A stretch of 60,416 bases of DNA from an uncultured bacterium (GTDB taxonomy: Bacteria; Patescibacteriota; Minisyncoccia; Phycocordibacterales; UBA9973), in contig CAIMAO010000024.1 of NCBI GenBank assembly GCA_903838985.1, positions 1 through 60,416 on the forward strand. Direction: 5' to 3'. The notes below the pieces were generated by a model that did not search any database, was not told the DNA's origin, and saw nothing but the letters and a program-made list of their open reading frames with translations. Position numbers and translations under genes: made by a program. Positions 6,578 to 23,621 of this stretch are shown piece by piece; positions within the stretch are counted from its first letter, which is position 1, and each line of letters opens with the position of its first letter.

Positions 6578-6579
6578 AA

Positions 6580-7488
6580 CTAGTTAGGCTGAGTATCTCC
6601 TGGGGCGAAACCAAATACAACTTTTTTTATTTGAGGAAATTGTAAAAGAGTTTTTTCTACCAATGGATGTATTCTCCCAATACTGACAGAAACTCCAGCC
6701 CATCCATCTAAATCAATATTGAGTAATACATATGCTGTGTCGCCTTGTATTTTAAAATAAGAAACAGATGCTTTCGTTTGTGTAATTAACTCTCCCGCAG
6801 CAGCATCAGCACTTGCCCTAATAATGTCAGTAGTATAAGGAATGCTTAATATTTTTTTTACAAAAAGCCATTTATCTAATGGATTTTTACCTCCTTCCTG
6901 TAAATAATTAGTCATAGCTTTGTTGTAAGCATCAATATTTTCAGGCACTAAAATACTTATATCAATTTTTTTGACAAATGATTCGCAATCAACTTGTGAC
7001 ATTTGAAATCCTGGAGTAAGTTTAGTCATATCTTTATATACATATACTCCATCTCCTCTATCTACCATCTCACCAAATAATGCAACAGCACTGCCTTCAC
7101 CAAATTCAATATTTAATTGTTCTTTTACATTCATACCCTCAGCTGTTGAATCCCACCAAACGTCAGCAATGCGTCCACTAATTTTTGGATCCATTGGTCC
7201 AACAGTACCTATAAATTTACCAACCTTGCTATCTTTTTCTGCGGGAAGATTTTGATATTCACCACTCACGTTTTCACCTTGAATATTCATTTTTAACCAA
7301 GCTCTATCACTATATCCACTCAATGTTTGTTGCAAATACTGATAACACATATCGATAGATTTAACAGGAACAACATCAACGACTTTCATTTTTTCATTTT
7401 GTTTTAACAAAAAGAAATATGCTATTAAAATAGCAACAAAAATAAAAACATAAATCAAATATTTTTTCATATTCATATAATACAACAT
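6580..7488 (-). CDS. Hypothetical membrane-anchored exported protein
   Basis: N-terminal TM; C-terminal 'EKTLLQFPQIKKV' is GerMN-like; true start probably a few codons downstream. Confidence 0.65.
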   Translation of the reverse strand: MLYYMNMKKYLIYVFIFVAILIAYFFLLKQNEKMKVVDVVPVKSIDMCYQYLQQTLSGYSDRAWLKMNIQGENVSGEYQNLPAEKDSKVGKFIGTVGPMDPKISGRIADVWWDSTAEGMNVKEQLNIEFGEGSAVALFGEMVDRGDGVYVYKDMTKLTPGFQMSQVDCESFVKKIDISILVPENIDAYNKAMTNYLQEGGKNPLDKWLFVKKILSIPYTTDIIRASADAAAGELITQTKASVSYFKIQGDTAYVLLNIDLDGWAGVSVSIGRIHPLVEKTLLQFPQIKKVVFGFAPGDTQPN

Positions 7489-7507
7489 TTAAATTAACTT
7501 CTAAAAT

Positions 7508-7660
7508 TTATTCTAGTGGATTTTGTCCACGAATAACACGAATTAAAAATAAAATTACAGCCACTACTAAAAGAATATGAATAAATCCCCCTAAAACATG
7601 AAAACCGACAAAACCAAAAACCCATAAAACTAATAAGATAAATGCAATTGTTGTAAGCAT
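7508..7660 (-). CDS. lmo0937-family small membrane protein
   Basis: Read manually: MLTTIAFILLVLWVFGFVGFHVLGGFIHILLVVAVILFLIRVIRGQNPLE. Confidence 0.8.
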   Translation of the reverse strand: MLTTIAFILLVLWVFGFVGFHVLGGFIHILLVVAVILFLIRVIRGQNPLE

Positions 7661-7744
7661 ACATACAATGCCGTTTTAACAATAAAAATATTACAAGTAT
7701 CTATATACTAAAATATTCTTCAAAAAATGATTATTCTAAAAATC

Positions 7745-8302
7745 TTAAAAAGATTTAATTACTTCTCTAAATTGATGTGCCGTTGGATCTAATTTAAGAT
7801 ACAAAGATTTTCCAACTGATGGCACAACCGCAAAACTTTCTCCAACTTTTCTATCAGCATAGTTAACAACTAAAATATTATTCTCTTTCAATTCTGTTGT
7901 TTGTGGAGCTATCCTATCTCCTAAAAAGACTGCTTCACTTCCGACTTTTCCATCTACTCTATCGAGTAAAGCAACGGCATAATAGAATACTCCACTACCA
8001 CCCGTTTCCTGAGTCAACAAAAATGCTAAATCTTCTCTGCCATCATTGTCAAAATCACCAACAATATCATTACCAAAATATTTAGTAACTATTTTTGAAG
8101 CAGAACCCGGGGCTGCTTCAACCTCCGAGATGCCATTCTTTAAGGCAACCTTTTGTCCTCCTATTGTATATACACCATCATGTAGATTAATTTGAATACC
8201 ATTTCCATTATAGATATCATCATCAATAAAATTAAATTTATATATACCCAAACCTAAAATTATTAAAACTAAAATTGCTAAAAGTATCAATGTTTTTTTC
8301 AT
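7745..8302 (-). CDS. Hypothetical exported protein
   Basis: N-terminal TM, 'GDFDNDGREDLA', 'GGSGVFYY', 'FLGDRIAP'. Confidence 0.7.
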   Translation of the reverse strand: MKKTLILLAILVLIILGLGIYKFNFIDDDIYNGNGIQINLHDGVYTIGGQKVALKNGISEVEAAPGSASKIVTKYFGNDIVGDFDNDGREDLAFLLTQETGGSGVFYYAVALLDRVDGKVGSEAVFLGDRIAPQTTELKENNILVVNYADRKVGESFAVVPSVGKSLYLKLDPTAHQFREVIKSF

Positions 8303-8340
8303 ATCTCAAGTATACACTAATTTTCATTTTTAAATTCATT

Positions 8341-8371
8341 CTCCTGTTTCAAACTTGGGAGGATGTTCAAA
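8341..8371 (+). repeat. Cassette junction site S1 (degenerate)
   Basis: ctcctgtttcaaacttgggaggatgttcaaa. Confidence 0.85.
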
Positions 8372-8374
8372 GGG

Positions 8375-8989
8375 CTATTTTATCTGATCCTCTTTAGAAG
8401 AAACAAATTCTTTAAATTTTATAACATCATCCTTAGAACCTAATATGTGTATTTGTTCAGGGGTTCTAATTTTAATTTGAACGCCTTCATTAGTTGTACT
8501 TGAAGATTCTATAGCACTATCATATTTGTATAATGGTGCTTCGTCAATTGAAAAAAGATTTGTATTATAAAAATCACGTCTTTCTTTGTCATATATTTCT
8601 TTTTCTTCGGTAGTTGCATCTACTTTTGGTAATATTAATGGGTTTTTAGCATTTACAATTACTTTATAAGTAAAATTTCCAAAAGCGGTTGATTTTATGG
8701 GGGAATATGAAAAGTATGTACCAAAATGACTATTTCTAAATTTTTCTATTGCACCATCCCTACTACCATGATAAACAATATCCTTTATTTTACTATCAGG
8801 AAATATTGTATCAAGATAAGCTGAATATTGTTGTTGTGTTCCAATATTAGCTAACTCAGGATTAGATTCAAATAATTCTGCTACACCTTGTTTTATTACT
8901 TTCTGTTCAAGGTTTTTTTCTAGTTTTAAATTAAGCTGCTTTGGAAATTCCCCTATCATAATAAAATTATACCTTATGTTCGAACTCAT
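8375..8989 (-). CDS. Cassette gene: hypothetical, possible ADP-ribosyltransferase-like fold
   Basis: 'YLDTIFPDSKIKDIVYHGS...TYFS...QIHILGS'; fold assignment tentative; real start probably MIGEF. Confidence 0.55.
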   Translation of the reverse strand: MSSNIRYNFIMIGEFPKQLNLKLEKNLEQKVIKQGVAELFESNPELANIGTQQQYSAYLDTIFPDSKIKDIVYHGSRDGAIEKFRNSHFGTYFSYSPIKSTAFGNFTYKVIVNAKNPLILPKVDATTEEKEIYDKERRDFYNTNLFSIDEAPLYKYDSAIESSSTTNEGVQIKIRTPEQIHILGSKDDVIKFKEFVSSKEDQIK

Positions 8990-9034
8990 ACAAAGGCAGG
9001 CAAAATAACCATTGTAAAATATGGCTTAAAATTT

Positions 9035-9061
9035 TACTCCGCACTTGGGAGGATGTTCAAA
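9035..9061 (+). repeat. Cassette junction site S2
   Basis: tactccgcacttgggaggatgttcaaa. Confidence 0.85.
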
Positions 9062-9092
9062 TATCCATAATAAATAATAAAGAAAACTATAT

Positions 9093-9890
9093 TTAGCCAA
9101 AAACTTTCCCATCCTCCTCTACCAACCATTCACCAAATGAATCAAACATTGCTAATATCTCTTTTTTGTCAGAGGGAGGATTTTTTTCAAATTTATACAA
9201 ATCTCTCATTTCTTTTTCTTTTTCAGGATAGAAAGAAATAAACATATCTACCAACTTATCAGTTTCCATGGTATAGAAATCAACTTTCCACATACACATC
9301 ATACCAGCACTACGAATAAGTCTTTTAGCTATCTCAAAACCAATTTTGTTGATTTCCTTAACATCAGATGCTGTCTTTAACTTTTCTCTCGCAATATCAA
9401 TATCTCTTTTCATACTTAACCTAACACGACCACATGTTTCTTTGTCTAATCTAATTGGTGGAAGTTCTTGGTCAAAATCTTTTCCCCAAACCCAGGTGGC
9501 AAATACTTTCATTTGAAGTTTCTTTCCTTCGGGAAGTTTATCAATAGAAAAGAGATTTATTTCTGCACCTCTCTGAAACGGGTAAAGTTTATTCAATCTA
9601 TCCATCTCGTTGTTAACCCAAGAATTTTGACATTCTTTAATTTTTTCATCATTCAGGTCTGTTATTGCATATAAATCTATATCAGATTTAACATCCATTG
9701 CTTCTCCATGTGCCACACTTCCTCCAACATATACGGAAATGAGATGGTCACCCAGATGTTCTTTACAAACTTTTGTCATTTCATTTACAACCTCTCCCCA
9801 CTTACCAGTTATTTTTTCAATAGAGGCTTTTTTAATTAGAAATCTATTTTCATCAATATTTAATGTTGCCATATAAAAACAGTATATCAA
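9093..9890 (-). CDS. Cassette gene: Pol-beta-superfamily nucleotidyltransferase domain protein
   Basis: 'SVYVGGSVAHG....KSDIDL' motif plus helical C-terminal domain. Confidence 0.75.
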   Translation of the reverse strand: MIYCFYMATLNIDENRFLIKKASIEKITGKWGEVVNEMTKVCKEHLGDHLISVYVGGSVAHGEAMDVKSDIDLYAITDLNDEKIKECQNSWVNNEMDRLNKLYPFQRGAEINLFSIDKLPEGKKLQMKVFATWVWGKDFDQELPPIRLDKETCGRVRLSMKRDIDIAREKLKTASDVKEINKIGFEIAKRLIRSAGMMCMWKVDFYTMETDKLVDMFISFYPEKEKEMRDLYKFEKNPPSDKKEILAMFDSFGEWLVEEDGKVFG

Positions 9891-9921
9891 AAAGTAATAT
9901 AATCAACTATATAATTTATTC

Positions 9922-9933
9922 TACTCCGAACTT
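9922..9933 (+). repeat. Cassette junction S3 (left half only)
   Basis: tactccgaactt, with an upstream flank resembling those of S4 and S6. Confidence 0.6.
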
Positions 9934-9943
9934 AAAAATTGAT

Positions 9944-10108
9944 TTAGCTAAACAAAGAGAAAGTTACACCCAAATAGTAAGGCCAAAGAACTATTGCAAA
10001 TAATCCTTTCCAAAAAGCTAAATGTAAAAATCCAACAGTAAAAAGCCACGCTGCAACCCAGAAACCTCCCGCAAACATATGATTTTCAACTCTAATTTTA
10101 TTTTCCAT
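9944..10108 (-). CDS. Cassette gene: small membrane protein, paralog A (54 aa)
   Basis: MENKIRVENHMFAGGFWVAAWLFTVGFLHLAFWKGLFAIVLWPYYLGVTFSLFS. Confidence 0.75.
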   Translation of the reverse strand: MENKIRVENHMFAGGFWVAAWLFTVGFLHLAFWKGLFAIVLWPYYLGVTFSLFS

Positions 10109-10114
10109 ATTGTT

Positions 10115-10288
10115 TTATTTATTTTCCATATTTTCTTTACTAAACTTTTTTCCTATGTAGTAAGGCCAAATTATTAAAGAAAGAACACCTTTCCAAAACG
10201 AAAGATGTAAATACCCTATGCTAAAAAGCCAACCTATCATCCATAGTGTCCCAAAGACATCTTGATGAGTTATTATTGTGTTTGTCAT
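10115..10288 (-). CDS. Cassette gene: small membrane protein, paralog B (57 aa)
   Basis: MTNTIITHQDVFGTLWMIGWLFSIGYLHLSFWKGVLSLIIWPYYIGKKFSKENMENK. Confidence 0.75.
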   Translation of the reverse strand: MTNTIITHQDVFGTLWMIGWLFSIGYLHLSFWKGVLSLIIWPYYIGKKFSKENMENK

Positions 10289-10324
10289 AATATGATTATA
10301 TCAAACTTAATTATATAGTCTATT

Positions 10325-10356
10325 CTCCTGCTCCGAACCCGGGAGGAGATTCTAAA
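10325..10356 (+). repeat. Cassette junction site S4 (divergent)
   Basis: ctcctgctccgaacccgggaggagattctaaa. Confidence 0.8.
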
Positions 10357-10358
10357 AG

Positions 10359-10847
10359 CTATTTTAGATAACTATCAAAATAAATAGCGTGGCAAGTATA
10401 TCCACCAGGGTTTTTTTGTAAATAATCTTGATGATATTCTTCTGCAGGATAAAACTTAATAAGTGGCTCCAGGGTTGTAACTACAGGATTCTTCCATCTT
10501 TTTGATTTATTAACAATGTCTATAAAGTCTTCTGCTTCTTTCTTTTCCTGCTCATTCCCATAAAAAATTGCTGAACGATAAGATGTACCTCTGTCATTCC
10601 CTTGTTGATTTAATGTTGTCGGGTTATGTATTTGAAAGAAAAAATCCAGTAACTTTTTGTAAGAAGTTTTTTCAGTGTCATATTCAATTTCTAATGCTTC
10701 AGCGTGACCTTCATGGTTATGATAAGTTGGGTTTTCTACTTTTCCACCAGTATAACCAACAATAGTTTTAATCACTCCAGTTTGTTTTCTAATTAAATCC
10801 TGAAGTCCCCAAAAGCATCCTCCTGCTAATATAATTTTTTTAGTCAT
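10359..10847 (-). CDS. msrA: Peptide-methionine (S)-S-oxide reductase
   Basis: GGCFWG, GYTGG, 'AEEYHQDY' motifs. Confidence 0.95.
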
Positions 10848-10858
10848 AAATTTTTAAA

Positions 10859-11242
10859 TTATTTTCCTGGAATAAATTTCATTGAAATAGAATTAACACA
10901 GTATCTCACGTTTTTATCTGTTAAATTTTCTCCAGTAAAAACATGACCTAAATGTCCACCACATTTGGCACAAGTTATTTCGATACGAATACCATCAGCA
11001 TCTAAGGTTTTTTTAGTTGCACCTAAAATTTCGTCATCAAAGGACGGCCAACCACAAGTAGATTCAAATTTATCTTTTGAATTATATAACGGTAATTCAC
11101 ATTGTCGACATACATATACACCTGTTTCTTTATTATTCACGTATTCTCCTATAAATGGTGCTTCTGTACCTTTATTTATAATTATTTCCTTTTCTTCTTC
11201 GGTTAATTGATTCACACTAATAATTATAACAAAAAAAATCAA
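10859..11242 (-). CDS. msrB: Peptide-methionine (R)-S-oxide reductase
   Basis: 'GTEAPF.G', CxxC, GWPSF, GHLGHVF, RYCVNS; start probably GTG near 11215. Confidence 0.95.
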
Positions 11243-11256
11243 AAGTTATACATCTT

Positions 11257-11308
11257 CTCCTGCTCCGCACTTGAGAGTCTTACCCCTCCTTTTTGGAGAA
11301 TATTAGAA
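11257..11308 (+). repeat. Cassette junction S5 (interrupted by ~21 bp)
   Basis: ctcctgctccgcacttg [agagtcttacccctccttttt] ggagaatattagaa. Confidence 0.7.
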
Positions 11309-11327
11309 ATATTTTAATTAAACAGAA

Positions 11328-11915
11328 TTAAGATTTTTCTACATTTCTAACCTTTCTTAAAAATAGTATCTCTCCAATAATAATTATTTTAATAACTAGC
11401 ACTGACAAAGGATATAGCCATGTTGTTATTGAATATGTTTTAAGTGAAGCAATTGAAAGACCATGTTTAAAAGCATCAAAAAACATAGAACCAAGAGATT
11501 CACTATGTGGTGCATTCCAGGTCTTACGCATAGTAGGGAAAAATCCTACCACATCAGTAAAGGAAGCTAATACAACTGACCATAAAATATTATTAGTTAT
11601 AAGCCAAGGGATGATTGAAATCAAGGCTAATGCCAAACATACTTTATCAAATTTTGTTATGTCTTTTGTCCCGTATTTTAAAGAAAGAAAAAATATACCT
11701 ATAGTTATGACTGCAGTGACTCCAGTTGTCCAAGAACCTGGACCTCCACCAGAAAACCATTGCCCTAAAAATGCTAATACAGTTACTATTGACCATATAA
11801 GCCAAGTATAGATATGGGGTTTAGTATTTCCACGAAATATGTCTTTTATATAAAGGTAAGAACTTCCTAGAGCAAGAAAAACTGCAATACTTCCTAGAAT
11901 TATTTTTATTTCCAT
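11328..11915 (-). CDS. Cassette gene: multi-pass membrane protein
   Basis: 'YIKDIFRGNTKPHIYTWLIW', 'PTMRKTW..PHSE'. Confidence 0.75.
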   Translation of the reverse strand: MEIKIILGSIAVFLALGSSYLYIKDIFRGNTKPHIYTWLIWSIVTVLAFLGQWFSGGGPGSWTTGVTAVITIGIFFLSLKYGTKDITKFDKVCLALALISIIPWLITNNILWSVVLASFTDVVGFFPTMRKTWNAPHSESLGSMFFDAFKHGLSIASLKTYSITTWLYPLSVLVIKIIIIGEILFLRKVRNVEKS

Positions 11916-11963
11916 ACTATGAATTATATCAAAACTTAATATAATTAAGTATATAGTTTATTT

Positions 11964-11995
11964 CCCTGCTCCGAACTTGGGAGGATGTTCGAATA
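11964..11995 (+). repeat. Cassette junction site S6
   Basis: ccctgctccgaacttgggaggatgttcgaata. Confidence 0.95.
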
Positions 11996-12028
11996 GCGAT
12001 AAGAGAAAAGGTTTGATAAAATCATCTT

Positions 12029-12277
12029 ATGAATAAAAAAGAAACCCCTATTATGCCACATAAAATTTCAGAAGATTTACGAAAAGCCTTAACTGCTTCA
12101 CCTTTAGCAAAAAGAACTTGGGATGACACTACCCCGCTCGCACACAACGAATGGATTTGCTGGATTATATCAGGCAAAAAAGCAGAGACAAGAGATATAC
12201 GTATAAAGAAAGCCATATCAAAACTCAAAGGTGGAATGCGTCGACCTTGTTGTTGGGCTGGATGTACCCATCGTTGA
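12029..12277 (+). CDS. Cassette gene: YdeI/OmpD-associated family protein
   Basis: 'DLRKAL....W..TTPLAHNEWICWI.S.KKAETR..RI....RRPCCW.GC.HR'. Confidence 0.8.
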   Translation: MNKKETPIMPHKISEDLRKALTASPLAKRTWDDTTPLAHNEWICWIISGKKAETRDIRIKKAISKLKGGMRRPCCWAGCTHR

Positions 12278-12282
12278 AATTA

Positions 12283-12313
12283 AACTTGGGAGGATGTTCG
12301 AATAAGTTTGATA
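12283..12313 (+). repeat. Cassette junction S7 (right half only, core missing)
   Basis: aacttgggaggatgttcgaataagtttgata. Confidence 0.85.
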
Positions 12314-12514
12314 AATTAGATAAAAAATAAAAAAGCTGACAAACATGATTCATCAGCTTTTATTTTGTTTGTGGAAATTTTAGAACGTTCCCCATTTCCA
12401 CAGATAAAACACCATGGTACCAACAACAATTAATGTTATTGATATTTTTAACAAAGTCATTTTGGTTGTTGACTTCATCTTTTAACCTTTCTTTGTTTAA
12501 GAATTTTTTGATTG

Positions 12515-12856
12515 TTACAAATTAACCCAGAAAAAACAGCTTTTGTATTGACCAATTTCTTTCCAGTTGATTTTTTCAGCTTCAACAAAATCAACAACAA
12601 AAGAATTAGCTTCTAAGTTGTTGCTTGTACTATTGTAATAAACCAAAGCTGCTAAACCGGGTTTCTCCAAGGTGGAACAAGATATAAGGTGAATAGATGA
12701 GTATTTCAAATGACTCTCATTTTCATCCCTTACATTAAGATTAACAAGTTTTATTAAGACCTGATACAAGTGTGCAAATTTCTTTCTTGCCTTCCTTGTC
12801 TTTGACAGTTCTTCATAATACTCTGCTAGTGATTCAGTTCTAATCGGAAGCAACAT
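12515..12856 (-). CDS. Cassette gene: hypothetical protein
   Basis: 113 aa ORF, AAAGGA SD, downstream of shared leader. Confidence 0.55.
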   Translation of the reverse strand: MLLPIRTESLAEYYEELSKTRKARKKFAHLYQVLIKLVNLNVRDENESHLKYSSIHLISCSTLEKPGLAALVYYNSTSNNLEANSFVVDFVEAEKINWKEIGQYKSCFFWVNL

Positions 12857-12884
12857 ATTTTTATCCTTTTAATCGTTACTGAAA

Positions 12885-13002
12885 TTTATTGAGTTATCTC
12901 AACCTCCGTAAAGAAACTAAGATAACTCAACAAATATAAATAAAAGGAAATATCAAAGAACTTATATAAATATATAATACTACTTTATATAACAAAAGTC
13001 AA
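12885..13002 (-). promoter_or_regulatory. Shared cassette leader L1: sigma70 promoter + boxA-like motif + hairpin
   Basis: Minus strand TTGACT-17bp-TATTAT, GTTCTTTGA, then TTGAGTTATCT...AGATAACTCAA; near-identical to 16226-16344. Confidence 0.7.
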
Positions 13003-13008
13003 GTATCT

Positions 13009-13039
13009 CTCCTGCTCCGAACCTGGGAGGATGTTCGAA
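13009..13039 (+). repeat. Cassette junction site S8
   Basis: ctcctgctccgaacctgggaggatgttcgaa. Confidence 0.95.
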
Positions 13040-13075
13040 GAAGTTGTATTGAGGTACAACATTTACAAATCCACT

Positions 13076-13105
13076 CTGCTCCGAACCTGGGAGGATGTTC
13101 GAATA
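13076..13105 (+). repeat. Cassette junction site S9
   Basis: ctgctccgaacctgggaggatgttcgaata, 64 bp after S8. Confidence 0.95.
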
Positions 13106-13109
13106 GCTA

Positions 13110-13592
13110 TTACTTCAAAATCTTAAATTTATCTATATCAATATCCCAGGAGTCCGTATTAATAGGTTCTTCATTTGTAAATTTTGGATAAAAATGTAGA
13201 TGTAAATGTGATACTGATTTCTTATCCTTATCATTTTGACGTGTCCTCCAACAAGTGAATAGTTGATCACCAAATAAAGAACCCTTACCTATGATTTTAT
13301 TATTTCTGTAATGATTTTCTAATTTTTCAGTAATTTCTGCTAATTCGAGTAATTCTTCTTTTTTTAATTCAGAAAAACGAACTACGTGTCTTTTGGATAT
13401 TAGTAAAGTATGATATTTCCTATAAGGGAACGCCGCAAATACCCAATTCCAAAAAGAATATTCGTTAATAGTAAGCTCTGGAGACATAATACAAAAAGCA
13501 CACCCCCCATTCAAATCTTTAAGATGTTTTTTATATTCTTCACGTGGAAGTGGTTTAGTTATTTTCATTATTAAATAACTTATAACAGACAA
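13110..13592 (-). CDS. Cassette gene: HIT-family nucleotide hydrolase
   Basis: CAFC, 'FPY..YHTLLI.KRH', 'SVSHLHLH' histidine triad. Confidence 0.8.
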   Translation of the reverse strand: MSVISYLIMKITKPLPREEYKKHLKDLNGGCAFCIMSPELTINEYSFWNWVFAAFPYRKYHTLLISKRHVVRFSELKKEELLELAEITEKLENHYRNNKIIGKGSLFGDQLFTCWRTRQNDKDKKSVSHLHLHFYPKFTNEEPINTDSWDIDIDKFKILK

Positions 13593-13613
13593 TGTAATAT
13601 GTCAATTTATTTT

Positions 13614-13652
13614 CCTGCTCCGAACTTGGGAGGATGTTCGAATAAGTTTGAT
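13614..13652 (+). repeat. Cassette junction site S10
   Basis: cctgctccgaacttgggaggatgttcgaataagtttgat. Confidence 0.95.
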
Positions 13653-13709
13653 GGAATAAAAACGGACCCAACATTGTTGGGCCTCGTGTAAAAATAAATT
13701 AAAATGTGC

Positions 13710-14024
13710 TTATGATATCTTGTTTGTTTTAAAAAGATAATAATCAACACATCCAACAGTTTCCTTTTCACCATTGTCTTTTGTAAACTCTACGTGAATA
13801 ATCCAAGAAGTTTCATTAAATAAACCTATCACTTTTCCTTTTTTGCCAAAACCACAGTATTGATATTTGGGAGACCTTGCTCGGATAGGGTCATCTATCA
13901 CAACCTCAACCGTATCACCTATGTTTATGTGATTTCCGTAACAATCAAAACCAGCAAAATTTGATGGCGGTTTTGCAATCAATAACTTTTCCCCAAGTCT
14001 TTCTCTTTCTGTCCTTGTTATCAT
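13710..14024 (-). CDS. Cassette gene: hypothetical (KOW/SH3-like)
   Basis: 'INIGDTVEV...GKKGKVIG'; SD AAAGGAAG. Confidence 0.55.
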   Translation of the reverse strand: MITRTERERLGEKLLIAKPPSNFAGFDCYGNHINIGDTVEVVIDDPIRARSPKYQYCGFGKKGKVIGLFNETSWIIHVEFTKDNGEKETVGCVDYYLFKTNKIS

Positions 14025-14043
14025 ACTATCACTTCCTTTTTTA

Positions 14044-14583
14044 TTAATTAAAACAAATCGTAATTTTCTTTTTCCCCTTCTTGTCTTCGTAAACAGAAGA
14101 GTAAGGAGACGAACTCGTCGTTACAACGTGATATCTTTTGATAAAACCATCAGGTAAAATAACCTTACCTACAGTTAAATCTTTCTTCACTTTGAAATTT
14201 TTTTCATCGAAATCTAATTCAGCTATTTCCAAATCAGATTTATCAACTTTTATCACCGGGTATTTCTTGAAGATAAATCTTTGTCCTTTAATTGTAACTT
14301 CAAATTTTTTTCCAACAACAGAAAAAATCAAACCGAGAAGAAATAAGATGGTAGAAAAAACAACAAAGAATTGTATTTTTTCATTATAATCAGTATCTAA
14401 CTCTCCTACAATAAGAGATATTATAAAAAAGATTATAAAAAATCCTATCTTCAAAAGAATGTTTCCTTTTGATACTTTGATTCCTCCAAAAGCAAATGAA
14501 GCAATCAAAACAAGAACCAACAAAACAACAAACTGTAACATAGTAACCTCTTTATTTAATTGACGAATAATTTGCTTACCCAA
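14044..14583 (-). CDS. Cassette gene: hypothetical membrane protein
   Basis: Three TM segments; likely start MLQFV after a GAGG SD. Confidence 0.6.
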   Translation of the reverse strand: MGKQIIRQLNKEVTMLQFVVLLVLVLIASFAFGGIKVSKGNILLKIGFFIIFFIISLIVGELDTDYNEKIQFFVVFSTILFLLGLIFSVVGKKFEVTIKGQRFIFKKYPVIKVDKSDLEIAELDFDEKNFKVKKDLTVGKVILPDGFIKRYHVVTTSSSPYSSVYEDKKGKKKITICFN

Positions 14584-14621
14584 ATACTACAACTTTTTTA
14601 ATAAAAGTCAATTTATCTAAA

Positions 14622-14655
14622 TGCTCCGAACTTGGGAGGATGTTCGAATAAGTTT
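14622..14655 (+). repeat. Cassette junction site S11
   Basis: tgctccgaacttgggaggatgttcgaataagttt. Confidence 0.95.
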
Positions 14656-14723
14656 AGTAGATAAATAATTGCTTTTTTTGTCTTTTGCTATACTATGTAT
14701 TAAACAAACAAAGAGAGGTATTT

Positions 14724-14897
14724 ATGAAAGAAACACTTGTTCATTCGTTTTATCTCGGACTTATTTTTATCTTTGCAATAATAAGTCCCATATGTTATTT
14801 CTTTTGTTGGTTATTATCAAAACCACTTAAAAAACTTTATTATCTCTACATAAAATTAGGAGATAAAAAAGTAACAATATTACAAAATCCGTCTTAA
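14724..14897 (+). CDS. Cassette gene: small membrane protein
   Basis: GAGAGG SD then MKETLVHS..., one TM, followed by aaaatccgt...acggatttt hairpin. Confidence 0.45.
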   Translation: MKETLVHSFYLGLIFIFAIISPICYFFCWLLSKPLKKLYYLYIKLGDKKVTILQNPS

Positions 14898-14967
14898 AAA
14901 ACGGATTTTATTTTTATCCCCAAAAACAGAAAACTCCCAACAGCAGAAGTAATCTGCGTGGGAGTTA

Positions 14968-15426
14968 TTAATTACAAGAGAGATTAAAGAGAATTTTATA
15001 ACCCTCCTCGCACCCTTTATTTAATGCTTTTTCACTAACTCCAAGAAAACCTAGCCTTACAGATAGAGCTCCAAATTCAATGCCGTTTGGGTCACAAGCA
15101 ACCATTGCCTTCATCTGCTCATAGCCAAAATTATCAAGAACCTTTTGAGATGGTTTTAACTCTTTTATTTCTTCTGAAAGAGAATCAAACCAAGACCACT
15201 CTCTTAAAAAAATAGCTTGTGCCATTGATTCCAATTTTTCCTGAAATTTCTTGTTGGAACCATATATGTGCATTCCAAAATTTGAAAAAGGTTTTTCTAT
15301 CTCAGAATCAACAATCTGTTTTCCATTAGGATTTCGAAAATGATTTACATTTTTGAAATCACTAATTTTTACCATACTGTTAAAAGTAAACAGTATATCT
15401 CGCTCTGGATTTAGAAAACAAGGCAT
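14968..15426 (-). CDS. Cassette gene: hypothetical protein
   Basis: 152 aa, AGGAGA SD. Confidence 0.6.
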   Translation of the reverse strand: MPCFLNPERDILFTFNSMVKISDFKNVNHFRNPNGKQIVDSEIEKPFSNFGMHIYGSNKKFQEKLESMAQAIFLREWSWFDSLSEEIKELKPSQKVLDNFGYEQMKAMVACDPNGIEFGALSVRLGFLGVSEKALNKGCEEGYKILFNLSCN

Positions 15427-15523
15427 AACATCTCCTAAAATTTAGTTAGTGAAATTAACAATTAACTATTAGAAGTCCAATTAAATTATACAATTAATAC
15501 TAACTATCTGTCAATTTATTTTT

Positions 15524-15552
15524 CTGCTCCGAACTTGGGAGGATGTTCGAAT
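15524..15552 (+). repeat. Cassette junction site S12
   Basis: ctgctccgaacttgggaggatgttcgaat. Confidence 0.95.
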
Positions 15553-15581
15553 GAGTTTAACAAAGAAATAAATAAACAAAA

Positions 15582-15615
15582 AGAGCCACAGAAGAGTGGT
15601 TCTCTTTGTGGCTCA
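15582..15615 (-). terminator. Intrinsic terminator at cassette end
   Basis: gagccacagaagag-tggtt-ctctttgtggctc hairpin followed by a T-run on the minus strand. Confidence 0.65.
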
Positions 15616-15622
15616 TAATTAA

Positions 15623-16201
15623 TTACCAGTTTTTTGTAATTTCACTGATTCTTTTTTCAATATCAAACTCTGTAAAATTATTTTTCTCACAGAAATCTTT
15701 TACTGTATTTTCCAGATTTTGCCAAAATAACTTAACTTCCTCATATCTTTTTTTGGATTTTTCATAAATTTCCTGATTAGTTTCTTTCTCTAACCACTGC
15801 ATCATATAATCTTCAGGTGTAGATTTATTGTCTCCTATTCTTATCTCCCACACTTCTGTATTTGAATTATCTTCCTTTTGAGGACCAAAAATATGATAGA
15901 TTTTCTTAAAAGAAGAATCGGGATCCTTGCTAATCTCCCTAGTTAGAATTTCAAGAAGAATAGAAATATGAGGTTCAGTTTTTAAAACTATTATATCTAA
16001 ACTTCCATCCATATTAGATAAAAATAGATTAGAAAAATCTTCATATGAACCAACATCATCAAAATGACCAGCACAACTAACTCCAAATGTCGCGCAGAAT
16101 GGTATTTGATGGAATAATTTAACCAATCCCAAAAACTCTAAATCCACACTTTCTATTTTATTAAAATTATCCAAAAATGATACTACCGCATGAATAGACA
16201 T
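15623..16201 (-). CDS. Cassette gene: hypothetical protein
   Basis: 192 aa, GGAGG SD, 'TFGVSCAGH' motif. Confidence 0.6.
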   Translation of the reverse strand: MSIHAVVSFLDNFNKIESVDLEFLGLVKLFHQIPFCATFGVSCAGHFDDVGSYEDFSNLFLSNMDGSLDIIVLKTEPHISILLEILTREISKDPDSSFKKIYHIFGPQKEDNSNTEVWEIRIGDNKSTPEDYMMQWLEKETNQEIYEKSKKRYEEVKLFWQNLENTVKDFCEKNNFTEFDIEKRISEITKNW

Positions 16202-16225
16202 AGAACCTCCAACTGTTTATTTTAA

Positions 16226-16344
16226 TTTATTGAGTTATCTCAATCTCCAGAAAGAAACTAAGATAGCTCAACAAATATAAATAAAAAAGGAAATATCAAA
16301 GAACTTATATAAATATATAATACTACTTTATATAGAAAAGTCAA
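16226..16344 (-). promoter_or_regulatory. Shared cassette leader L2
   Basis: Near-identical copy of L1 in front of an unrelated gene. Confidence 0.7.
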
Positions 16345-16350
16345 GTATCT

Positions 16351-16381
16351 CTCCTGCTCCGAACTTGGGAGGATGTTCGAA
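16351..16381 (+). repeat. Cassette junction site S13
   Basis: ctcctgctccgaacttgggaggatgttcgaa. Confidence 0.95.
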
Positions 16382-16457
16382 AAATTATATTAGAGGAAAA
16401 TATCGTATAAAAAACAGAAAACCCACCGAAGCAGTTTTTCTGCTGGTGGGCACAACT

Positions 16458-16886
16458 CTATATAAACTTTTTAGTTTCATAGAAAGAAAAAAGTCTGATC
16501 TCCCTTTCTTGAGCACCAAAGGTACTTTCAAAGTAACTTTCAAGAGACTTCTGAAATTTTTTTTTAAAAGATTCTTGTCCTCGATTTATTCTCAAGATTT
16601 GATCTTCCGTACAATCTTCTTTATTAAAAGAATCCCATTCAAATTCAAGTTTTTTAAATTGAGCAACTTGTTTCGTAAGTCTCCAAAAGTCCCTGCGAAT
16701 TATATATAAACCTAATTTGAAAGAAATATACTTTTCTAAGTAAAAAAAAGTAACAAATGAAAACTCCTGAAATTCAATCTTTTTTACAAATTTTTCAAAT
16801 TGAAGTTTCCTTTCAAGCTCTCCGTGTGTTAGTAAATAATCCTTCCAAATAGGTCTCATAATTTCTATAACTTCTTTCTTTCTCAT
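16458..16886 (-). CDS. Cassette gene: hypothetical protein
   Basis: 142 aa, GAGGA SD, downstream of leader L3. Confidence 0.55.
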   Translation of the reverse strand: MRKKEVIEIMRPIWKDYLLTHGELERKLQFEKFVKKIEFQEFSFVTFFYLEKYISFKLGLYIIRRDFWRLTKQVAQFKKLEFEWDSFNKEDCTEDQILRINRGQESFKKKFQKSLESYFESTFGAQEREIRLFSFYETKKFI

Positions 16887-16911
16887 TTTTTTCCTCTTGT
16901 TGTTAAATTAT

Positions 16912-17033
16912 TTTATTAAGTTCTCTCAATCTCCATAAAAGAAACTAAGAGAACCTAATAAAACTTAACAACTAAATCAAAATATCAAAGAACTTATATA
17001 GATATATAATACTACTTTATATACAAAAGTCAA
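16912..17033 (-). promoter_or_regulatory. Shared cassette leader L3
   Basis: Same promoter block as L1; hairpin carries a compensatory change GTTCTCT/AGAGAAC. Confidence 0.7.
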
Positions 17034-17040
17034 GTATTTC

Positions 17041-17070
17041 CCCCGCTCCGAACTTGGGAAAATATTCAAA
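17041..17070 (+). repeat. Cassette junction site S14 (divergent)
   Basis: ccccgctccgaacttgggaaaatattcaaa. Confidence 0.85.
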
Positions 17071-17143
17071 AGAGCATTTTAGACAAATAAAAAAACCGTC
17101 TCTCCTAAAACAGTTTTTTATTTTAGTTAAAGACGGTTAATAA

Positions 17144-18235
17144 TTAATTTATAAGAAAATCACGAATAACAATCAGCTTCTGATTATATTGATCTTCATC
17201 TTTTTCATTCTCCATTTTCATTACATAATCACGAATTTCTTTTAATTCAATGAGCATATTAAGAATTGAGGAAAATTTAGGATTGATCAAAACATCAGGT
17301 ACACCTGAAGGAAGAAGTAAGAAATGTAAAAATTCCAATCTCAACTTAAGTTCTTCATTAAAAATGCCATTAACCTGATTAAACTTTCTTACCTTAACCC
17401 CAAATTTCGAATGGAAATTTTCATAAGATAGATCATCATAGGCAATTTCAACTTCAGCACCAAAGAAATCAGTTTTTGAAACCAACTTCCACAAAATCCC
17501 TTTGGAAATCAATTTTTTCTGATATTCCTCGATATCTCCAGCTGTCCAGAGGGTGATCGGCTTTGTTGAAGAAATTTTTTCAAGTTCATTAAGAAGCTTG
17601 GGGTTTATTTCATTACCAATAAATAAAGTACCTTCAAGATCACAGAAAACTCCAGGAAAATATTTTCCAACAAATTTAGCATCTTTCGAGTCCCACTTGA
17701 AATCTAAAATTGTTTTAAATACTTCCTCGTCTGTTCCCGTAACTCCAATTCCTCTGGCTTTGTTGATGTGTTCAAATGCCCTTTGATCTTTACAATCTGG
17801 TATACGGCCCAAAACCGAATGCTGAATGAAAGACATTACCTTTTCGTACTCTTTAGCTCTATTAAGCTCTACAGCAAGAATATCCTCCTCTTTTTTACTG
17901 TCAATCAACTCAAGATATTTATTGTAGAATACCTCGGGTTCACTAATAGTATCAATAAATCCTGTCCTCGCTTTTCCCATCAAAGCATGAAATTTTGTAG
18001 AAAATTCCTTCTTTTTGAGAAAATAATTTTTAGGCATAAAACTACACAACAAAATAGGAGCTTCATTGGAGTTAAATTCTAAAGCAATATCAATCCCCTT
18101 GAAATCCGCGGGCTGATCATTTGTTTCAGGTCTTTGATATTCTGCTTGAACCAGAAATAAATCACACCCTTTTGAGGTTAGATATTTTGTTAGTTCAGCA
18201 TAAAAGCCATTTTTTCCATTTAAATACGTTTTCAT
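17144..18235 (-). CDS. Cassette gene: multidomain hypothetical with HAD-like C-terminal domain
   Basis: 'VFCDLEGTL', 'ITLWTAG', 'AYDD' HAD-like motifs; N-terminus is receiver-like. Confidence 0.6.
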   Translation of the reverse strand: MKTYLNGKNGFYAELTKYLTSKGCDLFLVQAEYQRPETNDQPADFKGIDIALEFNSNEAPILLCSFMPKNYFLKKKEFSTKFHALMGKARTGFIDTISEPEVFYNKYLELIDSKKEEDILAVELNRAKEYEKVMSFIQHSVLGRIPDCKDQRAFEHINKARGIGVTGTDEEVFKTILDFKWDSKDAKFVGKYFPGVFCDLEGTLFIGNEINPKLLNELEKISSTKPITLWTAGDIEEYQKKLISKGILWKLVSKTDFFGAEVEIAYDDLSYENFHSKFGVKVRKFNQVNGIFNEELKLRLEFLHFLLLPSGVPDVLINPKFSSILNMLIELKEIRDYVMKMENEKDEDQYNQKLIVIRDFLIN

Positions 18236-18269
18236 TTTCCTTTTCCTTTTCCTTTTTTAAAACAAATTA

Positions 18270-18391
18270 TTTATTGAGTTATCTCTGTTTCCAAAAAAAA
18301 GAAACAAAAATAACTCAATAAATCAATTAAGGAATCATTTTCAAAGACCAAAATACTATATACATAGTACAGTATTTAAGTAAAAAGTCAA
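18270..18391 (-). promoter_or_regulatory. Shared cassette leader L4 (divergent)
   Basis: TTGACT abutting S15, GTCTTTGAAAA, TTATTGAGTTAT...ATAACTCAATAA hairpin. Confidence 0.6.
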
Positions 18392-18429
18392 TGCTCCGAA
18401 CTTGAGAGGATGTTCGAATAAGTTTGATA
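18392..18429 (+). repeat. Cassette junction site S15
   Basis: tgctccgaacttgagaggatgttcgaataagtttgata. Confidence 0.95.
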
Positions 18430-18451
18430 AACAAATAATATAAATCTCTAA

Positions 18452-18865
18452 TTAAACTTGAAAATTCCTTTTTTGATACTCGTGAATTAATTCAATATCT
18501 TTTATATCCTTATCTCTTCCCATAGCTTGTTTTAATTCAATTAAATCATCTAAAGACATAAAAGGTACCCCTTCTATTATATCTGCATTCTTTATCACAT
18601 TTTCTGTAATAAGTTTACATCCTTCAATATGTGAAAAGTTTTTTGCTACCTCAGCATTATATTTATATAAATGAAAATGATTAATCACCTTTTCTTTCTC
18701 TTCCCAACCGTCTTTTTTTAGTTTTTCATAAAGTTTATTAGTTACAATTAAATCAATGTCGTCATATTGCCTAATATTTCTCGCAGCCAAAGCACTACCA
18801 CCAACAACTAAATATTCTCCAATGGGAAGATTTAACTTCTTAACATCACTTATAATGTTAGACAT
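18452..18865 (-). CDS. Cassette gene: minimal nucleotidyltransferase-like protein
   Basis: 'VVGGSAL...IR..DDIDL', C-terminal 'K...GRDKD..DI..I'. Confidence 0.75.
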   Translation of the reverse strand: MSNIISDVKKLNLPIGEYLVVGGSALAARNIRQYDDIDLIVTNKLYEKLKKDGWEEKEKVINHFHLYKYNAEVAKNFSHIEGCKLITENVIKNADIIEGVPFMSLDDLIELKQAMGRDKDIKDIELIHEYQKRNFQV

Positions 18866-18918
18866 GTTTTATATATTAGCATATATATAATGTTCACAAC
18901 ATTCACAAGTTCACAATG

Positions 18919-18990
18919 CTCGGGAGGTAGGGATCGAACCTACGACCAATCGCTTAACAGGCGACCGCTCTACCGCTGAGCTACTCCCGA
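18919..18990 (-). tRNA. tRNA-Asn(GTT)
   Basis: TCGGGAGTAGCTCAGCGGTAGAGC..GTCGC-CTGTTAA-GCGAT..GGTTCGATCC..CTCCCGAG; CCA not encoded. Confidence 0.97.
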
Positions 18991-19068
18991 ATACATTTAA
19001 TATCTTAACAGAAAATGAACAAAAAACAAGCAAACCAAAATATTTTTATTTGTGGTATAATTTTATTT

Positions 19069-19644
19069 ATGAAAGAAAAAATAGAAAAATACTTACTTAT
19101 TTTATACAAAAAATATAGGATAACCCCTGACATTTTAAGTTATATAAGAATATTTTCTGCCCCTTGGCTTGCCCTCCTTATAACTAAAATACTTTCAGGA
19201 AAAAGTTCAATACTCGCCATTATTACGATAATCCTTTATCTAATAATAATTTCTACAGATTATCTCGATGGAATTTTAGCCCGTGCAATCTCGAAAACAG
19301 AAAAACACGATCATTATCACGGAGGAATGCTTGATCGTCTAAGCGACAAAATATTAATTATATTTACACTTATCCCCTTTGGATTAAATCTTTTTACTTT
19401 CTCAATTATTCTAGCAGAATCAATTTTAGTGTTTCAAGCACTATATTCTCCTGATCATAAAAAACAGGCAACTCGTGCTGGAAAAATAAAAATGGTTTTA
19501 CAAACATTTTTGATTCCTCTTTTAATATTACAAATAGTCTCAAGCATTATTCCAGAAATGATTATTTATGCATATATAATAGCCACAATAATAGCTACTT
19601 ATGTTTCAATCTATTCACATTATTTTTATTTTGAAAATGATTGA
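19069..19644 (+). CDS. CDP-alcohol phosphatidyltransferase (PgsA-like)
   Basis: 'TDYLDGILAR...GGMLDRLSDK' DxxDGxxAR motif, 'GKIKMVLQ'. Confidence 0.85.
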   Translation: MKEKIEKYLLILYKKYRITPDILSYIRIFSAPWLALLITKILSGKSSILAIITIILYLIIISTDYLDGILARAISKTEKHDHYHGGMLDRLSDKILIIFTLIPFGLNLFTFSIILAESILVFQALYSPDHKKQATRAGKIKMVLQTFLIPLLILQIVSSIIPEMIIYAYIIATIIATYVSIYSHYFYFEND

Positions 19645-20614
19645 TTCTCTGGCACTAAATATTTCAAATATTTTTGGTTTATGTAAAAAAACTAAATTTC
19701 CTGGAACTTTAGCAAGTTTTGCTTCTTTAATTTTTTCTTTTCTAGCTTACTATTTTTTTAATAAAACAATTTATATTTTGCTATTTTTTGTTTTTTTAAT
19801 TGTAGGATTTTGGGCTATTAATAAAGTTCATAAAAAAAGTGGGCTTGGAGACTATCAATGGATAGGCGTAGATGAATGGATTGGAATGTGGCTTGCCAAC
19901 TTTTTTCTTTTTAATTTTAATTTCAATTTAATACAGGCCATTATTTTTTCTTTAATTTGTTTTGCAATTTTTCGCATAATTGATATTTTTAAATTTATTC
20001 CACCATTACAAACAATAAACAAAAGTGAAAATCAAAATGCTTTCGCTGTAATTTTTGATGATGTTGTCGGTAGTTTATATACATACATAATAATACTATT
20101 TATACTTGGTTTTTATAATTTAGATTACATTTATTCTTCTTTTTTAATACTTATCCCCGCAATGATCGCAAATATGGCACCTACTTTATTTAAAACAAAA
20201 TATTGGAACACTCCTATAAACGAAGAAATTTTTGGCAAAAACAAAACTTGGCGAGGTTTTATAAGTGCTATCATCGTCGGAACGATAGCATATTTTTTAC
20301 TTGTTAAATTTAACTTAATAAATTTTGACACTAAAACAAGTTTAATAATTTTTGTTGGTTTTTTATTTAGTTTCGGAGCTATAACTGGAGATTTAATAGA
20401 ATCATTTTTCAAAAGAAAAATCGGAATAAAACCGGGAGAAACTTGGGCACCTTGGGACCAAATAGATTATATATTAGGAATGATATTGTTAACATATTTT
20501 ATTTATCAATACACATTTAACCAAATAATACTGCTACTTGTATTAGGAGGCATAATAAGTGCTCTCACGCACAGGATAGGATATTTAATAAAAATAAATA
20601 GTGCTAAGCAGTAA
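19637..20614 (+). CDS. PgpA-like phosphatase fused to a CDP-archaeol synthase (CarS)/CTP-transferase-like domain
   Basis: N-terminal 'PGTLAS','DEWIG','FRIIDIFK','DDVVG'; C-terminal 'ANMAP','FGKNKTWRG','GDLIESFFKR..GIKPG','DQIDY'. Confidence 0.8.
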   Translation: MIDSLALNISNIFGLCKKTKFPGTLASFASLIFSFLAYYFFNKTIYILLFFVFLIVGFWAINKVHKKSGLGDYQWIGVDEWIGMWLANFFLFNFNFNLIQAIIFSLICFAIFRIIDIFKFIPPLQTINKSENQNAFAVIFDDVVGSLYTYIIILFILGFYNLDYIYSSFLILIPAMIANMAPTLFKTKYWNTPINEEIFGKNKTWRGFISAIIVGTIAYFLLVKFNLINFDTKTSLIIFVGFLFSFGAITGDLIESFFKRKIGIKPGETWAPWDQIDYILGMILLTYFIYQYTFNQIILLLVLGGIISALTHRIGYLIKINSAKQ

Positions 20615-21698: not shown

Positions 21699-21735
21699 TT
21701 TAGTTTATAATGATTTATATAACACATATCAAGAA

Positions 21736-22530: not shown

Positions 22531-22577
22531 TCGGATATAAAAAGTAATAGCCCATGCAAAGATCTGCAATGGGCTAT

Positions 22578-22841
22578 TTATAATGATTTCTTGATCTTTT
22601 TTACTGTAGTTTTTTTATTCTGAGCTACAGTATCTTGTTGAATTCTGTCAATAAGATTTTTTACAATCTTTTCAACAGTCTTTATTCCAGTGAATTTGGT
22701 TTCAATAGAACCACCTTCAACATTAGAGTAAGAAAATGAACAAGATATTTTATCCTGTTCATTAATACCATCCATAAGATGATATTTTTCAACAAGACCC
22801 AAAAAAGACAAGATCACAATGAGAAAGAAAAACTTTTTCAT
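22578..22841 (-). CDS. Hypothetical protein
   Basis: 87 aa, signal-like N-terminus, GAAAGG SD. Confidence 0.5.
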   Translation of the reverse strand: MKKFFFLIVILSFLGLVEKYHLMDGINEQDKISCSFSYSNVEGGSIETKFTGIKTVEKIVKNLIDRIQQDTVAQNKKTTVKKIKKSL

Positions 22842-23505: not shown

Positions 23506-23621
23506 AGATACAGTAAGTATTCTAACTTATTTATTAAATAATGCAAATGTTTTTTATATTGACTTAACCTTCAAAAGGATTAATATTAAAAACAAAGTAC
23601 AAAAACAACAGAAAGGATCAT

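Follow-up and report, generated by a model that had tools for sequence, protein, structure and literature searches.

A 10-kb stretch of contig CAIMAO010000024.1 from an uncultured lake bacterium of the Patescibacteriota (assembly GCA_903838985.1; the whole 60,416 nucleotides analysed are called the window below) carries a series of short direct repeats that bound small units of one or two genes and that end at a tRNA-Asn gene. Our analysis indicates that the repeat probably represents P′, the recombinase-distal arm, along with the core, of the attachment site used by a patescibacterial family of large serine recombinases (LSRs), and that the array probably consists of stacked tRNA-Asn junctions made by an LSR acting in trans.

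The repeat, TGCTCCGAACTTGGGAGGATGTTCGAA, is present on the + strand only, between 8345 and 18418. An initial annotation of this DNA had listed 15 copies in one orientation, of which 13 are full or near-full and two are only half copies, at 9922 (TACTCCGAACTT) and 11261 (TGCTCCGCACTTGAGAG), each followed by unrelated DNA and matched weakly by nhmmer (E 6.3 and 0.52, respectively). On both strands of the 46 contigs that make up the genome (751,086 nt), the 27-mer matched 13 times when up to 7 substitutions were allowed, always on this contig, on the + strand and within 8345-18418, so the statement that no full copy lies elsewhere holds across the 751-kb genome. The 22-nt core CGAACTTGGGAGGATGTTCGAA gave 11 matches at up to 3 mismatches, all on the + strand at 8350-18418, against none in 100 shuffles. 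One degenerate half copy was found outside the array, on contig C14 of the same genome, and a viral contig collection searched for the motif returned no match. The unit lengths given earlier (690, 887, 407, 932, 706, 309, 737, 64, 539, 1006, 903, 830, 689, 1348 and 525 bp) follow from the core coordinates. Nearly all copies are intergenic, as had been stated of all of them, the exception being copy 7 (12276), where the end of a + strand OmdA ORF takes the place of the first 8 nt. The - strand ORF stops at 8375, 10359 and 13110 are indeed close to a repeat copy, at 4-7 nt rather than 2-5 bp, and the CTCC reported ahead of TGCTC is frequent in the window and not so in other genomes. By eye the conserved part spans 27-45 nt and holds a single inverted pair of 5-7 bp (hairpin CGAAC-N10-GTTCG, with no T run after it), which agrees with its description as unlike attC. 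An Rfam scan of 6000-24000 found tRNAs only, plus one sub-threshold match to the patAB leader model (12321-12374, - strand; 34.2 bits against a gathering score of 92) that is most likely due to chance, and at the repeat in 8 other loci no Rfam family was matched.

As first described, the series terminates at the 3′ end of the tRNA-Asn(gtt) gene (18918-18990, - strand), where TG|CTC recurs and TGCTC (18917-18921) overlaps the tRNA end. This gene was predicted by ARAGORN (Rfam tRNA, 70.6 bits) and is the only tRNA-Asn among the genome's 44 tRNAs. Its 3′ end, with TG at 18916-18917, forms the target-side half site, which reads TG|CTCGGGAGGTAGGGATCGAACC on the + strand.

Variation among the copies is of the coding type. 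In the + strand frame CTC CGA ACN TGG GAN NAT GTT CGN it is the third codon positions that differ, and the entropy by codon position is 0.19, 0.18 and 0.67 bits over 407 unique copies. This frame reads L-R-T-W-(D/E)-D-V-R-x-(S/A)-(I/L)-(L/I/M).. and runs for a median of 15 codons to a stop (interquartile range 14-17), the other two frames differing. The coding-type variation is explained by the same codons being the in-frame end of recombinases of 480-560 aa. At locus L070 a 486-aa ORF, in which Resolvase, Recombinase and Zn-ribbon domains were recognised, has the motif as its last 17 codons; further full-length LSRs in frame with the motif tail are those of L230 and protein P0095, and C-terminal LSR stubs in frame with it lie at L050, L064, L112 and L209. 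A recombinase co-occurring with the motif, for which the initial annotation had suggested looking, is the LSR whose last codons are the motif itself, and in this native state the repeat encodes the ending ..WLRTWDDVRxxIIxx*. Other members of the family read antisense into tRNA-Asn (L014, L051, G172, G187, G019 and G098, with stubs at L017, L019 and L097). In this integrated state the LSR frame ends at a TAG within the T stem: ..CTG CTC CGG GGG TAG.. gives ..LLRG*, and the ending ..LLGR* belongs to LSRs reading into a tRNA-Asn with the window's type of acceptor stem. The earlier proposal that the tRNA 3′ end is a regenerated target is borne out by relatives' LSR genes, which read into the tRNA across ..(T/G)G|CTC...

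Both states are widespread among homologues. Of the 120 best homologues of the L070 LSR, 82 end in an antisense tRNA 3′ end (40 of the ..LLRG* type and 42 reading ..LLRGxDSN..), while the native tail was found in 20 and is of the window's type in 2. In a C-terminal alignment of 22 picked homologues, all sequences align to ..RP(I/V)WL and then continue with either a tail or tRNA-encoded residues; 11 of the 14 native tails in it contain W(D/N/S)x(F/V)R(T). Resolvase and Recombinase domains scored above cut-off in all five scanned LSRs (L070, L014, L051, L081 and L023) and the zinc ribbon did so in L051 and L081; the G172 LSR has Resolvase and Recombinase domains. Since the tail aligns with the native C-terminus of the family, the protein sequences indicate that it is an old part of the recombinase and that the motif belongs to the element's own site, as one of its arms. 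A role for the motif as the integration target was ruled out on the same alignment, and the repeat, first taken for a whole attP, proved to be only its recombinase-distal arm, doubling as the 3′ end of the recombinase gene.

The DNA common to the two LSR states is (T/G)GCTC, or TGCTCCG where the acceptor stem permits, and junctions of LSR with tRNA and of any flank x with the motif (x|motif) have (T/G)GCTC(C) in common. At L070, inverted arms TCCCA-N14-TGGGA are centred on the TC of GCTCC, and CCCTA and TCCTA arms occur in other LSR-side flanks; left arms on the cassette side and on the tRNA side have no such dyad symmetry. From this symmetry, TC of GCTCC is the likely crossover dinucleotide. 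A crossover inside GGGAGG was ruled out by LSR|tRNA junctions lacking the CGAACTT that would be carried over. Between the core and TCGAA the motif has 5 nt more than the tRNA, which is reminiscent of serine integrases, whose attP half sites are the longer ones. In some motif variants, GATG between TGGGAC and TTCGAA has given way to a GC-rich hairpin of ~36 nt; they were seen in L228 (4848-4920) and at the starts of a unit shared by two loci (L038 2571 and L228 3746).

The motif search in the genome and its relatives that had been suggested gave one locus here and a link to tRNA-Asn. Within the genus, the motif was present at up to 2 mismatches in 65/212 genomes and a reversed control pattern in none; the tallies include the unpublished genomes G113 (3 copies) and G114 (1 copy), both among the 65, and also G115. 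Locus L161, from G113, entered the pooled unit, flank and block-end counts (2 of the 10 members of one flank cluster), and the motif coordinate of L081 is that of a G114 contig; none of the conclusions depends on these unpublished genomes by themselves. Every genus genome with at least 4 listed copies has them on one contig and one strand, except G168. At least 120 motif stretches were found in each of two public collections, one of genomes and one of metagenomes, on records labelled Paceibacteria, Nomurabacteria, Kaiserbacteria and similar; these labels agree with the Parcubacteria-type organism that the initial annotation had supposed. ARAGORN found a tRNA in 23 of 80 genome loci (up to 8 kb), tRNA-Asn in 18 of these 23, and the window's arrangement (opposite strand, motif downstream of the tRNA 3′ end) in 16 of the 18, while a 3′ piece of tRNA-Asn was found in 8 of 80 metagenome loci, 7 of them arranged as in the window. 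These counts establish the link between motif and tRNA-Asn, and some tRNA-Asn genes were missed by ARAGORN because of a group I intron in the anticodon loop. Insertions of 250-560 nt split the tRNA at this loop in L154 (8102-8413; G172:C1 ~28.1-28.4 kb), L158, L159 and L051, and that of G172 scores as a group I intron (RF00028, 66.7 bits). Four contigs (G211:C3, G101:C11, G223:C12 and G029:C2) end exactly at tRNA-Asn, and assembly breaks are expected there if the adjoining DNA differs between strains in a sample. In the arrays of L098, L103, L129, L131, L227, L228, L239 and L248, a module of ~200 nt stands left of a motif copy; it begins like an antisense tRNA-Asn 3′ end (GCTCGGGAGGTAGGG) and ends like a sense one, with a hairpin inserted before the acceptor strand. 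Its two ends co-vary between genomes and it has no Rfam match; a structured RNA is one possible reading and a foldback of tRNA ends another.

Arrays are polar. In G172 the order is a 13-copy array, 6.4 kb of cargo (AbiEi/AbiEii and a trypsin-like peptidase), an LSR gene and tRNA-Asn; in G098 it is tRNA-Asn, LSR gene, ~11 kb and 10 copies. A complete LSR element thus lies between tRNA-Asn and the array in both genomes (~8 kb in G172, ~13 kb in G098), from which it follows that newcomers enter beside the tRNA. These layouts, together with the comparison of L038 with L228 given below, uphold the earlier suggestion of serial insertion at the tRNA-proximal end. Decay of the copies in the window fits this polarity: all five distal copies are degenerate or half, and 7 of the 10 proximal ones differ from the motif by no more than one nucleotide. 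When the genus was searched at the DNA level, the matches listed gave counterparts only for the distal 8.3-12.3 kb and the tRNA. The tRNA terminator was tried as the ancestral left flank and rejected; terminator-type flanks occur both beside tRNAs and inside arrays and hence cannot separate ancestral from imported DNA.

Exchange of single units between strains is evident from pairwise comparisons. Over all loci, 530 motif hits define 254 units of 276-3978 bp (median 890 bp). Loci L038 and L228 (97-98% identity over 1.8 and 1.1 kb) have a 1124-nt unit in common whose homology runs from one TGCTCC exactly to the next, the DNA differing beyond both ends; in this pair of strains the breakpoints fall at the core, as the initial annotation had anticipated. 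A 162-nt block adjoins tRNA-Asn in L038 and a motif copy in L228, and this change from x|tRNA to x|motif is what inserting DNA at the tRNA should produce. L106, L155 and L247 contain homologues of ~708 bp that match from core to core, with no similarity listed between the neighbouring units. Of 471 internal ends of similarity blocks, 47 fall no more than 20 nt from a core, against 6.2 +/- 2.5 at random; this enrichment is overestimated, since such ends are commoner between genes and each pair enters in both directions. Units are regularly built, with a P′ arm, a gene end within ~10-100 nt, and a promoter or terminator adjoining the next core.

The form in which units travel and the way they first arise are matters of inference. 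In the model that we propose, the LSR family would integrate at the 3′ end of tRNA-Asn, and its gene would run across its own attP, the near arm encoding ..(R/C)P(I/V)(W/L) L, the crossover falling in (T/G)G|CTC(C) and the far arm encoding the tail RTW(D/E)DVRxx(I/L)(I/L)xx*. Integration would fuse the body of the LSR gene to the tRNA and rebuild the tRNA end, so that the protein would end in ..LLRG* or ..LLGR*, and the tail-coding arm would stay at the far end of the inserted DNA. Each copy in the window would then be a junction between whatever adjoined the tRNA and P′, and the array a stack of such junctions left by repeated tRNA-proximal events, with the oldest units outermost. Units without a recombinase would have been moved by an LSR in trans. 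LSR elements may acquire or release units, singly or in blocks, when the junction on the tRNA side pairs with any junction of the type x|P′, and because any x|motif junction resembles the far junction of an element, excision could take or leave neighbouring units. Alternatively, unit circles may integrate directly, as the initial annotation had proposed; the data agree no better with single circles than with blocks that an LSR element carries and drops.

Several observations weigh against this model. No recombinase gene lies in the window and no cognate LSR in the genome (97% complete); the prediction that the recombinase would be encoded elsewhere agrees with this, and the array would at present be a passive store. 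The two LSRs that the genome does encode (on C29 and C36) are 26-28% identical to the family and adjoin neither the motif nor a tRNA. None of the 80 metagenome loci is a circular contig (terminal overlap of 20-200 nt). Recombination was not observed; the 4 sequencing runs, of one study, were available as Logan contigs broken at every repeat copy, a form in which circles and deletions are not readable, the joints listed falling on the repeat with a shorter side of 21-32 nt and holes in coverage carrying no proof. Cassette-junction left flanks lack the TCCCA arm found beside LSR genes, and unit circles could therefore integrate directly only if the LSR accepted one good half site per partner. 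LSR stubs at junctions in other genomes show that decay in place also happens, synteny in the genus is low in general, which further tempers the block-end enrichment, and the model leaves unaccounted how msrAB gained a P′ arm a few nt past its stop. The ORF of the unrelated serine recombinase on C29 of this genome (G000; ~20.4-22.04 kb, L031; 550 aa) extends into DNA that another frame would read as the start of a P-loop GTPase gene (GLPNVGKSTLFNALTK), and this recombinase gene, too, possibly spans its own site.

In a rival explanation, the units are whole LSR elements stripped in place of their recombinase and most of their cargo, never having moved as units. We consider this unlikely. It would account for the 5′-truncated LSR stubs beside the tRNA (L017, L019, L097) or the motif (L050, L064, L112, L209), for the degenerate distal copies of the window and for the serial integration of whole elements in G172 and G098. 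It is opposed by the absence of any LSR body remnant in five arrays (47 kb), where the best non-tail match had an E-value of 0.002, and by the regular build of the units. Moreover, the same unit recurs core to core in other genomes or strains with other neighbours, and random deletions would not stop at the core every time.

The remaining alternatives would assign the repeat another function altogether. Its frame of ~16 codons, (M)LRTWEDVRxSILxx*, might be a gene of its own for a small peptide or leader, as the codon-like variation and the tight length distribution could suggest, but a start codon precedes CTC in some copies only (TGG, GGG, AGG, GAG, AAG and TAG also occur there), so the frame is not a stand-alone gene, and its codons are the in-frame end of the recombinases described above; we regard this as very unlikely. 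Still less probable is a cis-acting repeat without recombination, such as a REP-like element, a terminator or insulator hairpin or a local-regulon operator. The inverted repeat of 5-7 bp and the placement between a gene end and the next promoter would suit such a role, whereas dispersal of the REP/BIME type was not found (13/13 copies in one 10-kb stretch), the hairpin has no T run and no Rfam family, and the coding of the LSR tail, the tRNA-Asn link and the block ends at the core would be left unexplained. An integron remnant (CALIN, that is, attC sites without an integrase), for which the same-strand array of short cassettes, the repeat 3′ of each gene and the AAC..GTT inside the repeat might speak, is extremely improbable. 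The only two tyrosine recombinases of the genome (PF00589) are encoded on other contigs, C2 and C6, and none at the array; the 27-45 conserved nt with one 5-bp inverted repeat contain, by eye, no paired R″-L″/L′-R′ boxes; 7/15 units have their own promoter-like site at the core; and it is a serine recombinase gene whose end forms the site.

The ORFs between copies number one or two per unit and all lie on the - strand save one, in line with the first description of mostly tRNA-oriented genes. Next to the tRNA, a 137-aa gene (18452-18865, -) shows a weak nucleotidyltransferase likeness (DUF6036/DUF2204) under the Pfam cut-off and has homologues in the motif-bearing loci L109 and L047; it is followed by repeat copy 15 (18392-18418, +; 1 mismatch, TGA in the tail frame). 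The largest cassette gene, of 363 aa and no family (17144-18235, -), has 29 homologues among 5.8 billion proteins. Beyond copy 14 (17044-17070, +; 5 mismatches) lie genes without a family of 142 aa (16458-16886, -) and 192 aa (15623-16201, -), each with a common promoter-leader of 150 nt ahead and separated by the exact copy 13 (16355-16381, +). The exact copy 12 (15525-15551, +) has a promoter-like TTGACA-18-TATAAT on the - strand beginning 11 nt to its left, and is followed by a 152-aa gene of no family (14968-15426, -), the exact copy 11 (14622-14648, +), a two-gene cassette of 104 aa and 179 aa without a family (13710-14583, -) and the exact copy 10 (13616-13642, +). A 160-aa HIT-domain gene (13110-13592, -; PF01230, 35.6 bits) adjoins copies 9 (13077-13103, +) and 8 (13013-13039, +), which are 64 nt apart and carry an identical C variant; the gene-less 64-nt unit between them is probably a local duplication. 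A 113-aa gene of no family (12515-12856, -), also with the common promoter-leader ahead, separates them from copy 7 (12276-12302, +), whose left 8 nt are the end of the OmdA/YdeI-like ORF (82 aa; 12029-12277, +; PF13376), the sole + strand cassette gene, with homologues in 7 motif-bearing loci.

In the distal part, the exact copy 6 (11967-11993, +) is followed by a 195-aa gene of no family (11328-11915, -), whose homologue in L104 sits between two motif copies, and by the half copy 5 (11261-11277, +). The next unit holds msrA (10359-10847, -) and msrB (10859-11242, -), the only copies in the genome. The use of msrAB as a fixed distal synteny marker failed: in the 8 relatives compared it is located elsewhere, and the 20 kb around it contain no tRNA-Asn and hardly any motif. 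The msrA stop is a few nt from copy 4 (10329-10355, +; 5 mismatches), and no motif is found downstream of msrA in 10 relatives. At 10329-10375 the tail codons of the motif (..KAILDN) overlap, on the opposite strand, the last msrA codons (SYLK*), and 9 nt, TATTTTAGA, are common to typical tails and the relatives' msrA end, a possible microhomology at the join. Two small paralogous ORFs of 54 and 57 aa (9944-10288, -; 47% alike) lead to the half copy 3 (9922-9933, +), and a 265-aa gene with weak nucleotidyltransferase likeness (9093-9890, -), 88% identical in DNA to G088:C22, leads to copy 2 (9035-9061, +; 3 mismatches). The left flank of copy 2 is of the terminator type, found also in 59 of 440 unique copies elsewhere. 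The outermost gene, of 204 aa and no family (8375-8989, -), has a 62% homologue in L049 that begins at a core, and copy 1 (8345-8371, +; 4 mismatches) forms the distal end of the array.

Pfam cut-offs were passed by 4 of 20 ORFs (18 in the array and 2 in its left flank), namely those with HIT, MsrB, MsrA and OmdA domains; apart from the two with a weak nucleotidyltransferase likeness, the others had no Pfam match. None of 10 cassette proteins without a Pfam family matched NCBIfam, and PADLOC gave only weak nucleotidyltransferase-type matches on the cassette proteins. The promoter-like sites at 7 of the 15 cores are on the - strand, with the -35 box beginning 1-11 nt from the core; their total count is not above that of shuffles, and the case rests on position. 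The promoter-leader of ~150 nt, with a conserved hairpin, is found at 12857-13012, 16202-16354 and 16887-17043 and on contig C14 of G000 (14101-14340), preceding four unrelated genes and matching no Rfam family. The C14 copy is also accompanied by a half motif, CGCTCCGAACTTAAAAG.

Several known systems resemble this one in part. In staphylococcal cassette chromosomes (SCC, SCCmec), LSRs of the Ccr type integrate at the 3′ end of one gene, rlmH, regenerate it and form tandem arrays with short direct repeats as bounds, in which some units without a recombinase rely on one in trans. The array described here likewise has tandem, direct-repeat-bounded units, some recombinase-less, at the 3′ end of one conserved gene. 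It differs from SCC in its target, a tRNA gene rather than rlmH, in its units of 0.3-4 kb with one or two genes rather than tens of kb, and in a recombinase gene that spans its own attP and has its C-terminal tail swapped on integration. Integration that alters the product of a gene spanning attP is known from SSV1-type split integrase genes and from mycobacteriophage repressors with attP in their 3′ end, both of which involve tyrosine integrases. Here the gene would be the serine recombinase's own, with the last 13-45 residues exchanged. The likeness to integrons lies in function: a polar, same-strand store of small cassettes with the site 3′ of the gene and the newest at the anchor, dominated by rare and unknown genes. 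Unlike in integrons, the recombinase is a serine rather than a tyrosine enzyme whose gene lies away from the array, a tRNA end instead of attI serves as the anchor, the half sites are apparently of the double-strand type rather than folded attC, and many cassettes have their own promoter instead of being mostly promoterless.

For the tycheposons and tRNA-linked islands of Prochlorococcus, a host with a streamlined genome, a published description reports repeated site-specific integration at tRNA genes, with newcomers pushing older elements into the island, flanking repeats that are partial tRNA copies, integrases that are mostly tyrosine recombinases, and a large serine recombinase in 27 of 937 elements (10.1101/2020.12.28.424599). 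By comparison, only 5-7 nt are common with the tRNA here (TGCTC in the window, TGCTCCG in other genomes) rather than copies of ~40 nt, the repeat is the recombinase's own 3′ end, and the units are mostly single genes without an integrase. On these comparisons, the array would be functionally integron-like, mechanistically closest to SCC arrays and tycheposon-like in its tRNA target. The first assessment that no described system matches was therefore too strong, SCC arrays and tycheposons being close in logic. Our literature search found no paper on this LSR family, on a recombinase gene spanning attP at a tRNA, or on such arrays. In the part seen of one article on gene exchange in Patescibacteria, the words tRNA, recombinase, integrase and cassette are absent (PMC12455944).

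The finding bears on how these bacteria acquire genes. The genomes of Patescibacteria are very small, few mobile elements have been recognised in them, and the acquisition of accessory genes in this group is poorly understood. A single 23-nt signature now marks a gene-capture locus and names the class of enzyme responsible, and the units make up a catalogue of rare, unknown genes traded among these bacteria. The locus renders testable a serine recombinase running an integron-like cassette store, an LSR acting on partners with one good half site each, and an attP inside a recombinase gene as a switch; its short defined sites and tRNA target may also interest users of serine integrases as tools. 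It is quite possible, and we put it forward tentatively, that a counterpart of the integron based on a serine recombinase exists in Paceibacteria-type Patescibacteria, in which cassettes of one or two genes, each bearing its own promoter or terminator and half of an LSR site, would be captured, stored in a polar array at tRNA-Asn and exchanged between cells, as units or blocks, through LSR elements in trans, and in which the recombinase would sense its own state by the tail swap, integration replacing its WDDVR tail with three tRNA-encoded residues.

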